Shown: in pieces, positions 1 to 6,000 of the stretch | Numbering within the stretch: the first letter of the stretch is position 1 | Layout of the letters: each line of letters opens with the position of its first letter | Origin: a virus | Taxonomy: Duplodnaviria > Heunggongvirae > Uroviricota > Caudoviricetes | Virus record (IMG/VR): IMGVR_UViG_3300029841_000319 | Span: 1 to 10,544 of that record | Strand: one strand, 5' to 3' | Length of the DNA stretch: 10,544 nt | Made by a program: the position numbers

Positions 1-3000
1 GTGCTTACCGATACAAAATTAAAAAACCTCAAGCCGCAGGACAAACTGTACAAGGTCTCCGATCGTGACGGGCTGTATGTAGCTGTGCTTACGTCAGGAA
101 CGGTCTCGTTTCGCTATGACTACCGTATCAACGGTCGCCGCGAAACACTGGTAATCGGGCAGTATGGGCGTGACGGTATCAGCCTGGCAGAAGCGCGAGA
201 AGAACTGATTGCTGCAAAGAAGCTGCTTAAAGCAGGCCAGTCGCCGGCTGCGGCTAAACGTGACGGTATCAAAAAGATTCGTGGTGCCGAGACGTTTGCG
301 GTACATACCGACAGTTATATGAAACACGTCATCCTAGCTGACAGTACCCGCGCAATGAAGCAGGCGGTGATCGACCGTGACATACTTCCTGTTCTTGGTA
401 ACAAAATGATGGCTGAAATTACCACATCGATGGTTCGTGATTTGTGTGACCGGATTGTCGAACGCGGCGGCCGGGCAACAGCAGTGCAGGCCAGGGAGAT
501 CATCAGCAGCGTATACCGTCACGCCAATGACCGTGGTCATGGTTTGTTTAATCCTGCGGCTGACATTAAACCTTCGTCTATCGCCATATTTAAACCACGA
601 GAGCGAACACTGACACCAGAAGAAATTGGCCTGTTCTTCCGCACGCTGGATGCCATTGGTGCTATGGGCACTATGAAAATGGCTTTAAAGCTGGTGCTTA
701 TCACTATGGTTCGTAAAGGCGAATTCACCAATGCAACGTGGGATGAAATAGATTTTAAAAAATGGACATGGACAATTCCTTCAGACCGCATGAAGGGAAG
801 CCGGGCGCACGTTATTTACCTGCCTAAACAGGCACAGGATATATTGGTTGGGTTGCAGATGTGCGCTGGTGGAAGTGAATATCTGGTTCCTGGTCGTTAC
901 AATTTCCGGAAGCCATTATCTAATGCCGCGCTGAACTCTCTGATCGACAGAACGGTGAAAATAATAAATGAAGATGGTGAGCATATTCAGGGCTTCACCG
1001 TACACGATATGCGCCGTACAGCCAGTACGTTGTTGCATGAGGCTGGTTATCCTTCAGACTGGATTGAAAAGGCTCTGGCACATGAGCAGAAAGGTGTGCG
1101 CGCCGTATATAACAAAGCGGAATACGCCAGACAGCGCGCCTACATGTTGCAGCAGTGGGCCGATATGATTGATTCCTGGATTAACGGGGAGCATACGGAT
1201 CTGATTCCGTTCTCCCCGTCGAAGTTTGAGAAGTGGATGGCGGGGGAATAATTTTGCCCGGCACATCCCTGTGCCGCCGCCGTCAGAAGAACCCTGCCTT
1301 GTCGTTGATGTACTCCGCGTGCGTCTGGATATCACGCAGGCATTTACTCACACCGACGATGTAGCAGAACATGGTGGTCAGTTCCGCCGCCGCGCCCGAT
1401 ACGTCGTGCCCGTCTTCCTGTAACTTGTTCAGCAGATTCATCAGCAGTGAGTTCTCCGTCAGGCCGAGAACACCAGACGGAGAATGAATCAGGCTGCGGT
1501 AGCCGGGCTTCAGCGGGGCACTGTATTCTTTTTTGTCTTCCAGCTTGATCGCCTCCATAATGGCGGGCATGAAGCCTGACAAGACCTTCTCCACTTTTGT
1601 TTCTTGTTGTCTTAAACGTTTCTCGCATTCAATGAAGTAGCATCGTACCTGACGACCTTTTTCGTTACGCTCGACCATCGCCAGCTCTTTGGCTGTATCG
1701 AGGGTGAGGTGGTAGTCTTTTGCAGGACGGCCTCTGCCTATTTTTTCCCGAACTTGGGAAATAATCATAAAGTCTTGATTTTCAACGAAACCATATTCAG
1801 CAATTCGTTCGACAATCCACGAAGCAAATCGCTTACCTACATCGAGGAAAGAGTGTAAATCACGGGCATTAACGAGAAGAGCGGTTTCGTTGGATATAGT
1901 GCCGTTGAATACGGGGATGAGTTGACTGGTCATGATGACCTCCTTTGAAGTTTTAGTTAGCAATCACCAGTTAGTAGCTGGTGATCGGGTGTCAACTAGA
2001 GCCTTCAAAGACGCTCCGGGCATATTCCCCTTTTGGGTATTGTATTACGCCTCTCCACCCGACCTTTGTACGGATGTGACTATGCCAAATTGCAGGCATA
2101 AAAAAGCCGCAAAGCTATCGGGTGCGGGTGACCGCTTTGAAGTTCTAGTGCGGTCAGTATGCGATAGCTCTGGCGGCATTGTCAAATCATGCGCCACTGA
2201 GTCCAGCAATCTCTGCAATACCAATAGCGAGATAATCGCGATTCGTCAGGCGTGATTTTATTGCATATGTCTTAGCTCCACTGAAGTTGTGATTTTATAT
2301 GGGTTGCCTTTTACCTCAATAACACGATGAGGATCATTTTTTAGTTCTTCCGTAATCTTCCGTAATGTTCTAACAGCTGAACTTCGGTGTTTATAACGGT
2401 AAGTTACAGTTTCTTTTCTCTGCAATACCTCATCATTGCGGTACTTAGTCAAAACCATGACGACTTCAAACCTGACGCCGTTGTGTGCAACCATAATCTG
2501 CTTCATGCTGCACGCTCCCGCCCCTGGTTGTCTGTTGGTGACAGCGGAGCATTGCTGAATGCATTTGTTAATCTGGCAATATCCAACGCGTATCCAGGGT
2601 GTAGTTGCACTGCCGGGTCTTCGCACTGATTACCCCAAATATCGAAACCATGAGACGACTGGCGGGCGAACAGTTCAATGCGAGAAACATCGCCTAACAA
2701 TTGCACAAGTTTTTCACGAACGATATCTGGCTTTCTTGAATGCTCAAGCCGCGGTGCGGTAAATGACTGAACGATCCCTGCATTAATGCGCGTAGGTAGT
2801 TTTCCATTTACCGCAAACAGGCAATCTTCACTATTGGCGCGAGTCATGTGTCCCATACCCATAACCAGTTTATCTGGTTGTCGACTACCACATTTTATCC
2901 ACGTGAAGCCCTTCATGGTCATCAGACGGAATCCCCAGGCTTCAACAACTTTTAGTGCTTCGAGTGGTTGTGTTGGCACCCACCACATGGCCAACAGACA

Positions 3001-6000
3001 GTTTTCATCGGCCAAATCCCACACAGGAAGGCGGCAGATATCCAGCACACTCATAACCGGATATTTAAAACCGGCACCGCGATTACCATCTGCGGCTTTG
3101 TCCCGGTATACCCAGGGTGGATCTGCATAGATTAGTGTGTATTTCTTAGTCATAAACCACCCCACAACATCCTATGCCGCTATAGTCGCCACGGCGAAGG
3201 CCGTTACCTTTTGTGATACATTGGTCCCTGCGAACCGCGATCCTTGCACGTTCAACATCACCAGAAGCAACATCCATACACTGAAGCCAAAGGTGAGCGG
3301 CAATGCGGAACTGCCCTTTTTTCTCTCTTTCAATCGCGCGTTTTTCGATCTCTATCGCCGCAGGAGTAACGGCGATAACCTTTGAAGGACGGCGCATTGA
3401 AACCTTGTTCATGTGATATTTTTCAAGTCGGCTTAACTTTCTCACTTAATCCAACCCTCTCTGAAAATTAATGCCAGCAGATAAAGCCATGCTGAAACAG
3501 AGGCCAGGAATAAGTACCATCCTGACCATTTGCTCCAGTGCCTTAGCAGCACACTCATGCAGCGTTTCTCACAGGACGATATACACGTTGCTGAACAGGA
3601 GGCTTTTTACCCTGGAACTCTGCCGGGCTTGCTGCCTGACGTTCATCAAGCCAACGCTCAACTTCGTCACGGTTCCATGCGCAGCGTTTGTCAGTGATAT
3701 ACCAGCGTTTAGGAAATTCACCTGCGCGCTCCATACGGTCGATAGTGCTCCATGACAGTGGCACCACCGCCAGGAGTTTCTTCTTATCTAATGCACCTTT
3801 CATAAATACCTCTCTTGGTTGCAGTGCGGCGCGTGTGGCGCCGCGGTGGTGGTTACATAGATGTTTCGTTTAATTCTTCCCGACGAACGCTGTAAACGTC
3901 GGTGGCTTTTGCCAGCAGTTCGTCATCATCTGAAAGTTTTTGTGCAATGTATTTGTAAGCCTTATCCAGTTCGGAGACAGTGCTGTAATTCATCGCTGCG
4001 CTGGTAAAGGCCATCAGCATTTCTTCTGGATCACGGCTATCCGCTTTACGCGTTTGCTCATCATGCTTTTTCACTGGTTTAGCGTTGATCAGACTGTTCA
4101 TTCCCGCAGCAGTAGTCGTTTGCGGAGTAATATCTCGCTCAACGCGCGGTGCCGTTTCCTGTAATTCGTCAGGGGTGTAAACACCGAGAAGTACATCAGG
4201 AGCGTGCAGGCGAGCCCATCGTTTCGTGCAAAGATAGGCAAGCTGCTGGCGCGGATCCTGTTCCCACAATGGAGAGTTACGCACTCCGGCTTGCGCCATA
4301 CTGATGGTAAGCTCACGGGGTTCTGCTTCTCCTTTAAGAACTGCTGACACAGTTACCGTCAGATTCGGTGATTTATCTGTTTTGCCGTTAACATTCGACC
4401 AGTCACCGCTCCAGCGATAATTCAGGCGTGTCGCCAGCAGGCTGGAAGAGGATACGACCGCGTTTACCAACTGTGCTTCGTAGCCTAACGTTCCGTTTAC
4501 CACATGCGTTTTCTGCGCCACGGCGAAAGGGTTCATTCCCCACTGTGCCGCCTGCATGGTCACCGCCAGACAATCGGCAGGTTTGCCTTCAAGATGTTTC
4601 GGTACAGTCGCTTTGCTTTGTGACATCAACTCCGCGAAACGCACCAGTTGATTCATGCCCTCCGGGCTGAAGATTGCCGCAGCAGTACCTACAGTTGCGC
4701 CTGGTTGTGATGTGATTGCGATATCATTGCTCATACGTACATATCCTGTTTGCGTGCCCACTCAGGGCGTTTAATGATTTCCACGCCGCCCCATTCATCA
4801 TTGATGCGGCATTCGTGATAGGTATTCAGATCCCGGCGGAACAGAGCGTGCCCGGCATCGACATCCGGCGCATCCAGCGCGAACATGCGTACCGGATACC
4901 GACCACAATCAATGCTTTCGCTCACGGCAAGAAAGAAAAAACCATGCGACTGACCAGTAACCCTCATCGCTCCTTCGCGGTACATTGCGTCCTGCACGTG
5001 GTAGCGGAATTCCTCGATGTGGCGTGCAAAACGATCCATATCTGCAACCTTTTTCACGTCGACGATCACGTTGTGCTCGTTCAGCCATTTGTCTGGACGA
5101 ATGCGGCACAACTCACCAGTCTCTTCATCATTCCAGTACATTGATGCTTCGCAGTAACCAGGTGCTTCCAGCATCCAGCGTGCCGCCGGGTGAGCCATTG
5201 CGCTATCACGCATCAGCTCCAGTTTCCGCCACTGCTCGGCATCAAGTACCGTAATCCCCATATCCGCCACATCACGAAGAAATGCCTCTTCGTCAGCTTT
5301 ACCTTGTTTCGTCCGACGATCGAATTTCGGTGAAACAATGAAGCGTTTGTCGAACTCTCCAGGCTCCAGAAGCAGACAGTGCAATGCGGTTCCCATATCC
5401 AGTGCAGACTTTTTCTCTTCGTCTTCTGGTGCTGCCTGAACCCATTTAAGAAGCGCCGGATTCTTGGCAACCATGTCCAGTTGCGACTTACTCACGCCGT
5501 CACCGGCGTGGTAGTCCTCATTGCTGATGTCGAAATAAATTCCCGGTTTCATGCCGCTTCCCTCTGCCCATCAATCCGATCCGCCAGATCCCAGCGGGCG
5601 ATAATTGCCATTGCCTCGCGCCGGTAGGCATCCATAAGTTCTTCGAACTCAGGGCTGTCTTTAGCTGCCTCCAGCACTTCCTGGCGAACGCCTTTACCTG
5701 TTACAGCGTCGAAAGTTGAGGCTAGTTGATGAAGCCGGATGCTCTCGATCAGTTCAACTTGTCGGTCATATAGCTGTTCTGACAGGCGGTAGTCCTTGTC
5801 GAATGCCAGCATGATTTTTTGAAGATTTTTCTGCTGATTAACGTTCATTATCAGCCCTCCCATATCTCGTTATCGTTGGCTACATCGCGAGCTTCTTTGC
5901 TGACGAAAGCCCACTTAATGCCTTCCTGTAAGGTGCAGAACTTCCAGCTCATGAATCCGCATGCAGTAACGCAGTACCAACCGTTGATGATTTTCCACTG

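Follow-up and report, generated by a model that had tools for sequence, protein, structure and literature searches.

The stretch of DNA considered here, hereafter the window, comprises all 10,544 nucleotides (nt) of IMG/VR virus record IMGVR_UViG_3300029841_000319 (positions 1-10,544). It contains a prophage of the phiV10/epsilon15-like type (genus Uetakevirus) adjoining guaA and shows 98% DNA identity to phiV10-type phages and prophages by megablast. Toward its integrase end lie three minus-strand open reading frames (ORFs) that are chained by overlapping stop and start codons: gene A (3146-3445), encoding a small PerC-family protein of 99 amino acids (aa); gene B (2503-3153), encoding a 216-aa MT-A70 adenine methyltransferase; and gene C (2258-2506), encoding an 82-aa orphan cargo protein. 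A preliminary description, made from the sequence alone, had recognized this chain correctly and had interpreted the trio as a functional unit. The analysis reported here leans modestly toward a largely ordinary picture, namely a known PerC-methylase pair with a swappable cargo slot in a phiV10-type prophage, shaped mostly by mosaicism. Annotations for genes A and B exist already in phiV10-type phages, and the two genes are present in about a tenth of complete Escherichia coli genomes; at more than 95% identity, megablast recovered the pair in 541 records from 538 of 5426 such genomes.

The three reading frames are tightly packed. Gene A may start at a GTG codon at position 3445, giving 99 aa, or at an ATG codon at 3412, giving the 88-aa product annotated for phiV10 p34, and it ends with TAA at 3146-3148. 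This stop codon lies in an 8-nt overlap on the minus strand (3146-3153, ATGACTAA) together with the ATG start codon of gene B at 3153. Gene B terminates at 2503-2505, and gene C extends from an ATG codon at 2506 to a stop codon at 2258-2260, the stop of the former and the start of the latter overlapping by 4 nt (ATGA, 2503-2506). Both overlaps can be read directly from the sequence, and a Shine-Dalgarno-like purine-rich stretch is found ahead of each of the three starts.

Evidence on the composition of this chain comes from gene C. It is kept alongside the A-B pair in only 19 of the 541 E. coli records and in one of 18 phage records (HEMP4). For the other records carrying the pair, the alignment begins at query position 299, which corresponds to window position 2498, five bases past the methylase stop; in phiV10 and approximately 520 E. 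coli prophages, homology to the window ends at the methylase stop junction. These megablast alignment ends place a mosaic breakpoint where stop and start codons meet in ATGA (2498-2506, minus strand). Across the 80 viral loci with the closest methylases, the gene following the methylase stop encodes a DUF1382 protein in 33 cases and a 219-aa calcineurin-like metallophosphatase in about 14, and in the more distant relatives among them the slot holds one of several unrelated ORFs of 53-83 aa. At least eight alternative cassettes occupy this slot overall, at least five of them small ORFs other than DUF1382, the phosphatase and gene C. With its constant ATGA sequence and a varying gene behind it (loci L086-L166), the junction looks like a cassette-exchange recombination joint.

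Gene C itself belongs to phrog_9805, to which no function is assigned, and yielded no match in Pfam, NCBIfam or PADLOC. It forms a single 90%-identity cluster in a collection of 5.8 billion proteins, and an exhaustive HMMER search of 1.8 billion representatives identified one true relative, P0003 (72 aa, 52% identity). The gene for this relative resides in a different integrase island, where it follows a 353-aa repressor-like protein and is not accompanied by a methylase. An AlphaFold 2 (AF2) model generated from the single sequence shows a beta-beta-alpha-beta topology with a predicted local distance difference test (pLDDT) score of 55, a quality insufficient for fold comparison; two homologues are too few for a useful alignment. 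Because a protein-level homologue exists and a GGAG-type ribosome-binding site precedes the start codon, gene C is probably a real gene. As judged from these sequence comparisons, it does not partner the methylase and is best regarded as unrelated cargo with no function assigned.

With regard to the junctions, the overlaps are real yet carry no special signal, and coupling is generic in these operons. Of 76 species-representative loci of the gene B family, 47 have an upstream ORF that runs into the methylase start, regardless of what this ORF encodes, the overlapping products including NinB, replication-protein-O-like proteins, C5-cytosine methylases and zinc-finger proteins. Nearly all downstream cassettes begin at -4 relative to the methylase stop, forming the ATGA junction. 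In sister prophages (L007, L008, L010, L134, L139, L143 and L153), a conserved gene of 52-59 aa (consensus MTNPxDxIxVG...GW..P.G.VI.NPLKAQR.AE) is located between the PerC-like gene and the methylase gene, and this insert again uses the junctions ATGACNAA and ATGA. Because the overlaps are generic and the same junctions are reused by inserted genes, they are no sign of a complex; rather, they behave like short boundary sequences for mosaic module exchange.

These observations bear directly on the proposal that all three genes constitute one methylation-based defence, anti-defence or toxin-antitoxin-like module. The proposal draws on the overlapping junctions and the position in an accessory region, and on nothing else. 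It is opposed by the rarity of gene C among pair-carrying records, by the exchangeable nature of its slot, by the methylase-free locus of its only relative, and by the generic character of the overlaps in this methylase family; in addition, genes A and C have no PADLOC match, no cognate nuclease is present in the window, and no toxin-antitoxin or restriction-enzyme evidence was found. Such a module is therefore considered extremely improbable. The preliminary description had itself stated that its unit would be contradicted if the small genes were not conserved alongside the methylase in related phages or if they matched well-characterized unrelated families such as Ren or NinE, and had suggested a co-occurrence analysis across phage genomes. 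Gene C proved not to be conserved beside the methylase, so the trio fails as a unit on the description's own terms, and gene A falls in a named family, PerC.

Gene A, previously regarded as unrecognized, matches the Pfam PerC family (PF06069) with 30.2 bits against a gathering score of 22.6, the match covering residues 35-80 and including the motif KGQFRIAAHLW. It also matches phrog_868, designated 'transcriptional activator', with an E value of 1.6e-61. In RefSeq, E. coli copies of gene A are labelled as PerC family transcriptional regulators and those of gene B as MT-A70 family methyltransferases. The score of gene A against the ANR family (NF033650) was 23.6 bits, below the curated cut-off of 32. 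A core motif, E..KG.[YF]R.AA..W, is common to gene A, PerC of enteropathogenic E. coli, PchA-E encoded by prophages of enterohaemorrhagic E. coli, and ANR proteins, all of which are small, helical and prophage-borne. However, Pch-type proteins start at the motif, possess a different C-terminal ('MG') extension and are encoded by stand-alone genes, whereas gene A adds 27 residues at the N terminus, carries a YSGI...GVVYD tail and forms part of an operon in which it precedes the methylase gene.

The AF2 model of gene A, based on a 16-sequence alignment, consists of a short N-terminal helix followed by helices spanning residues 28-42, 46-59 and 63-80 (pLDDT 80-91). Its C-terminal tail (residues 81-99, ...DYSGIGCCGVVYD) is predicted to be disordered (pLDDT <56) and contains five positions that are invariant in the alignment, Y88, G90, G95, V96 and Y98. 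A tail of this type is still conserved in L007, where the gene does not overlap the methylase. Foldseek searches with the model returned weak MIT/TPR-like three-helix matches alone, all with E >0.1, and no winged helix-turn-helix (wHTH), DNA-binding or other nucleic-acid-binding motif could be recognized in gene A. Because it combines a helical MIT/TPR-like fold with a conserved disordered tail, the model suggests that gene A may encode a protein-interaction module rather than a DNA binder. A role of this kind is in keeping with reports on Pch and ANR proteins. Of the remote homology and structure predictions recommended in the preliminary description for both small proteins, those for gene A gave the PerC family and a predicted three-helix MIT/TPR-like arrangement, and those for gene C gave a model of low confidence.

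The earlier identification of gene B as a 216-aa MT-A70 methyltransferase with a DPPW motif was confirmed. The protein matches Pfam PF05063 over the entire profile (positions 1-172 of 172; 76.6 bits, cut-off 23.9). Its DPPW codons, GAT CCA CCC TGG (GATCCACCCTGG), are located at 3112-3123 on the minus strand and specify motif IV at residues 11-14; D11, P12, P13 and W14 are invariant or nearly so in an alignment of 14 homologues. The nearest structures in the Protein Data Bank are those of ciliate MT-A70 family proteins and METTL3 (E 1.7e-12 to 3e-5). In PADLOC, gene B matches only generic type II methylase models (MTase_II, E 2.5e-76). The one nuclease detected in the window by Pfam is the RecT-associated PD-(D/E)XK exonuclease, which is also encoded upstream of the trio. 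Because the window offers no cognate nuclease and PADLOC recognizes a generic methylase only, gene B is predicted to encode an orphan N6-adenine methyltransferase of the beta class, in agreement with the earlier reading of an orphan phage enzyme. The non-specific prophage methylase M.EcoGII was also considered as a possible relative and was ruled out, being a 349-aa DPPY enzyme of another family (PMC5778455).

Several characterized homologues provide information on the likely specificity of gene B. Its core (residues 1-187) is 82% identical to the enzyme class found in Shiga toxin (Stx) phages, as represented by the orthologue of phage Ss-VASD, and its C-terminal tail (residues 188-216) is specific to the phiV10/epsilon15 lineage and unrelated to the Stx-phage tail. 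According to PMC10810198, M.EcoGV of E. coli O104:H4, a member of the Stx-phage class, is cited as methylating GATC when overproduced and is reported to be highly similar to enzymes of the M.EcoPA8orf6770P class. Gene B also shares 40% identity (E 7e-48) with p32 of Serratia phage BZS1. When p32 was expressed alone in a dam- host, plasmid DNA became resistant to MboI and sensitive to DpnI (PMC7556043), and the enzyme therefore methylates GATC. Together with M.EfaBMDam of Tn1549 (PMC7556043), p32 represents the GATC-specific beta-class 'Dam-like' methylases, which belong to the same Pfam family as gene B. Like gene B, p32 is an orphan enzyme encoded close to the integrase gene, with a small protein of the ANR/PerC superfamily encoded directly ahead of it (within 2 nt in BZS1). 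It differs in having an insertion of approximately 23 residues and in that its GATC specificity was measured, whereas that of gene B is based on homology. By this comparison, gene B probably encodes a Dam-like, GATC-specific N6-adenine DNA methyltransferase.

Two further observations bear on this assignment. GATC sites are neither notably depleted nor enriched in the window (39 observed versus 44-55 expected), counts that are uninformative about specificity. The only biochemical study of a close homologue, M.EcoPA8orf6770P, describes weak activity on DNA for the enzyme alone and a preference for 16S rRNA (PMC10810198), a result at odds with a simple 'phage Dam' reading.

The latter enzyme offers an instructive precedent for a partnership with an upstream gene product. 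In Stx2a prophages, M.EcoPA8orf6770P and PNB-2 were described as a two-subunit methyltransferase by Gong, Chakraborty and Koudelka (Nucleic Acids Research, 2023; PMC10810198). The methylase co-purifies 1:1 with PNB-2, the product of an overlapping upstream gene; the complex prefers 16S rRNA and the 30S subunit and affects spontaneous induction, and the authors suggested that the C-terminal approximately 27 residues of the methylase are needed for PNB-2 binding and holoenzyme formation (PMC10810198). The Stx-phage locus resembles the window in having an integrase-proximal MT-A70 gene with a small gene overlapping its start, and the methylase gene is followed there by DUF1382, as it is in phiV10. 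The upstream proteins are different: PNB-2 of Ss-VASD, whose gene overlaps the methylase gene by ATGA, is a 143-aa winged-helix protein, whereas gene A is PerC-like. In the GenBank record of Ss-VASD (L166, 1816-3004), the PNB-2 orthologue is labelled 'adenine methylase' and the true methylase 'transcriptional activator', labels that appear to be swapped or misleading. Judging by gene order only, the PNB-1 named in the Stx-phage paper is apparently the AntA-domain antirepressor encoded just upstream.

This precedent raises the possibility that genes A and B encode a comparable two-subunit holoenzyme, in which gene A would be an obligatory specificity subunit redirecting the methylase from DNA to, for example, 16S rRNA in the 30S subunit, and would thereby modulate translation and prophage induction. 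The 82% identity of the gene B core to an enzyme that pairs 1:1 with an overlapping upstream product (PMC10810198), the equivalent upstream and overlapping position of gene A, and the conservation of its tail despite predicted disorder are all consistent with such an arrangement. However, no homology between gene A and PNB-2 could be detected: BLAST gave no alignment and two profile-profile comparisons were negative (hhalign probability 1%), and no PNB-2 homologues were found in phiV10-like loci. Gene A lacks a wHTH or other nucleic-acid-binding motif. The C-terminal segment of approximately 27 residues implicated in PNB-2 binding in the enzyme of Shiga toxin-producing E. coli is not present in gene B, where the alignment stops at residue 187 and an unrelated tail takes its place. 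The methylase tail and the kind of protein encoded upstream showed no clear co-variation: PerC genes accompany the long phiV10/epsilon15 tail whether or not they are adjacent, and PNB-2 is found alongside two different tails. On the other hand, PNB-2 is also found upstream of a methylase clade with 43% identity, and wHTH-PerC fusion proteins, described below, share with PNB-2 a layout of a wHTH plus a C-terminal module. In-frame fusions of a PerC-like ORF to a methylase were observed in Logan assemblies (P0010, 297 aa; P0008, 263 aa) and may represent either genuine fusions or indel errors within the 8-nt overlap. Such read-through ORFs would accord with a holoenzyme, but they come from these raw assemblies only and may be sequencing errors; the tolerance of inserted genes between A-type and B-type genes also argues against it. 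Taken together, an obligatory holoenzyme is judged unlikely. For gene A, the earlier suggestion that a small coupled protein serves as a specificity or regulatory subunit retains partial support from the PNB-2 analogy and the recurrent pairing documented below; for gene C it is refuted.

The association of genes A and B can also be viewed against a broader set of loci. A survey using a PerC profile built from fetched loci covered 80 species-level loci of the methylase family; the pairing samples are small and partly redundant, and the counts are given without phylogenetic correction. A PerC-like gene is located directly upstream of the MT-A70 gene in 9 of the 80 loci, and 9 others have one on the same strand no more than 1.5 kb away. 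The adjacent cases include wHTH-PerC fusions of 142-170 aa, which are found beside methylase clades of 65-70% and 43% identity and show homology to gene A in their C-terminal halves (hhalign 97%). In Serratia phage BZS1, p33 is a bona fide ANR-family protein (50.9 bits, cut-off 32) whose gene ends 2 nt before the methylase gene.

A similar order occurs with an unrelated methylase. In the CPS-53 prophage of E. coli K-12 (L167, 6113-6882), YfdN is a 164-aa wHTH-PerC fusion with its PerC domain at residues 100-151, and its gene overlaps that of YfdM, a truncated methylase that belongs to an unrelated 'Dam' family, PF05869, and shows no similarity to gene B by BLAST. As in the window, a PerC-domain gene thus lies directly upstream of and overlaps a phage adenine methylase gene; unlike in the window, the K-12 pair follows replication-type (O-like) genes and is not next to the integrase gene. 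Near-identical yfdN genes are present in viral contigs (L168-L247), with an intact 217-aa NPPY methylase gene downstream in 59 of 78 evaluable loci; most of the remaining loci encode a 108-aa protein with a LexA DNA-binding domain instead. In addition, a scan with a degenerate DNA motif, performed without a methylase as bait, returned at least 122 matches, all of them PerC-like and falling into 10 clusters, in a sample dominated by YfdN relatives. The clusters with a methylase downstream are the YfdN-like one and one further wHTH-PerC cluster, in which the next gene resembles what is left of the N-terminal part of a methylase of the PF05869 type. In total, the PerC/ANR-then-methylase order was observed with at least six divergent PerC lineages, two methylase families and two genome neighbourhoods. 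Sequence comparison gives a suggestive indication that the pairing is specific to the tail-bearing PerC subgroup. A literature search for PerC or ANR together with a methyltransferase yielded nothing relevant, and no description of the pairing was found.

Several findings, however, weigh against a functional link between the two genes. No PerC-like gene was detected near the methylase in 62 of the 80 loci, where the neighbours are NinB, O-like proteins, C5-methylases and others. In the motif scan, 8 of the 10 clusters are without a methylase downstream among the matches listed, and the Pch-like ones stand alone. Some sister prophages carry DUF1382 or another gene between the PerC-like gene and the methylase gene in addition to the 52-59 aa insert, giving one to three inserts overall; because such insertions are tolerated, tight A-B coupling is dispensable. 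Among homologous methylases, activity on GATC is seen with no partner present, as exemplified by BZS1 p32 (PMC7556043). Finally, co-location could reflect a shared operon position rather than a shared function.

Several of these findings lend weight to the view that genes A and B are independent neighbours, gene A being a free-standing Pch/PerC-type regulator that remodels H-NS-silenced or other phage or host promoters and the methylase an unrelated anti-restriction enzyme, with adjacency due to inherited synteny only. PerC and Pch proteins are known to activate LEE1/ler and to work on nucleoprotein complexes of H-NS, no methylase being involved (PMC5931665), and the solitary Pch-like clusters in viral contigs, the many methylase loci without a PerC-like gene and the separability of the pair all accord with this explanation. 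It is less easily reconciled with the recurrence of the PerC/ANR-then-methylase order across at least six PerC lineages, with two unrelated methylase families, and in two neighbourhoods (integrase-proximal in the early-left operon, and after O-like genes in CPS-53). Because the pairing recurs across lineages, methylase families and neighbourhoods, inherited synteny alone is a poor explanation. Moreover, the methylase-linked subgroup has a C-terminal tail motif of its own that is absent from Pch-type proteins. Independence of the two genes is thus a serious contender that falls just short of an even chance, and a functional link of gene A to the methylase, though credible, is somewhat doubtful.

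A more far-reaching interpretation is that the tail-marked PerC/ANR subgroup, comprising PerC-only, wHTH-PerC and ANR proteins with a YSG...VYD/YVG-type tail, represents a dedicated accessory factor of phage orphan adenine methylases. Genes of this subgroup would accompany, and be translated immediately before, methylases of at least two unrelated families (MT-A70 and PF05869); the proteins would bind these enzymes and govern or redirect methylation, much like the unrelated PNB-2 in Stx phages. This interpretation is speculative and rather improbable at present.

Under the favoured reading of a known pair with an exchangeable cargo slot, the locus would represent the integrase-proximal end of a leftward early operon, organized as a chain of translationally coupled cassettes and not as a three-part machine. 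Cargo behind the methylase stop would be exchanged at the ATGA joint, the present occupants being gene C followed by an sRNA-Xcc1-like element and the antirepressor gene. The methylase would be produced once infection or induction switches on the early-left operon, and may then act on replicating phage DNA, and on host DNA when host Dam is limiting. The resulting methylation might protect against methylation-sensitive restriction, tune phage development, or both. Gene A would act through protein contacts and might be functionally linked to the methylase by controlling or redirecting it.

Comparison with phiV10, which together with the equivalent epsilon15-like genes is among the nearest known systems, illustrates this organization. 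Its genes p34 (PerC-family transcriptional activator) and p33 (DNA methyltransferase) show approximately 98% DNA identity to genes A and B, and phiV10 shares with the window the 8-nt junction, the ATGA junction and an operon containing the AlpA-like, RecT, exonuclease, repressor and integrase genes. The order integrase / (cargo) / methylase / PerC / AlpA / RecT / exonuclease / repressor is common to the window and its phiV10-type relatives. The difference lies in the third gene: in phiV10 it is p32, encoding a 64-aa DUF1382 protein and followed directly by the integrase gene, whereas the window carries gene C, the sRNA-Xcc1-like element and the antirepressor gene.

The neighbours of the trio are as outlined in the preliminary description, with recombination genes upstream and the antirepressor and then the integrase downstream. 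The AlpA-like gene (3555-3803, Pfam) lies upstream of gene A, followed by RecT (3853-4761, Pfam). In the window, as in E. coli prophages, the region 3853-5552 comprises two overlapping genes for a 273-aa PD-(D/E)XK exonuclease and a RecT protein of 293-302 aa, unlike phiV10 (L002, 5355-7115), for which a single 1761-nt RecE-RecT fusion gene, p37, is annotated. Further along, a DnaT-like replication protein (7493-8326, plus strand) contains a short tandem repeat stretch rich in N, G and P (...NGNVPENGNIPKNGMLNDPKNGMLNDPKNGIQN...); because this gene is repetitive, long spurious ORFs arise on the opposite strand of the same interval.

On the other side of the trio, gene C and the antirepressor gene fill the variable region between the methylase and integrase genes, and the antirepressor has no equivalent in phiV10. 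The antirepressor (1283-1963, minus strand) contains an AntA domain (Pfam PF08346, E 8.7e-28) and matches phrog_377. It is followed by the tyrosine integrase gene (1-1251, plus strand; Pfam), which lies on the strand opposite to the trio. Gene C and the antirepressor ORF are separated by 295 nt, and this gap contains a structured RNA of the sRNA-Xcc1 type (1975-2064, minus strand), which matches the full Rfam model RF02221 with 62.9 bits against a gathering score of 53 and is located directly 5' of the antirepressor gene on the same strand. This element is part of the cargo inserted with gene C and lies outside the trio. Further sRNA-Xcc1 matches lie in L001 (5776-5865) and in Stx phage Ss-VASD (L166, 1762-1847 and 1223-1312), where the family is found 5' of the AntA-domain gene, and the element may serve antirepressor cassettes as a leader or regulatory RNA. 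A sigma-70-like site is found approximately 90 nt upstream of it (2185 to 2156); promoter and terminator scans of the region 1200-3900 returned no more sites than were found in shuffled sequence.

As it stands, the locus adds little that is new, given that the A-B pair is already annotated and gene C is yet another piece of orphan cargo. Nevertheless, the Stx-phage homologue alters spontaneous induction and virulence through a partner-dependent substrate switch (PMC10810198), and the phiV10-type enzyme, with a different upstream partner and a different tail, provides a natural comparison for understanding how partners set specificity. The occurrence of PerC/ANR-type proteins directly ahead of two unrelated families of phage adenine methylases constitutes a modest lead, for which the sequence evidence is suggestive. 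A functional pairing would mean a new role for a family chiefly known for virulence regulators such as PerC, Pch and Aar, and would provide K-12 YfdN with a function. Should the accessory-factor interpretation be true, a family annotated as 'transcriptional activator' would acquire a different primary job, and YfdN of E. coli K-12 would be explained.

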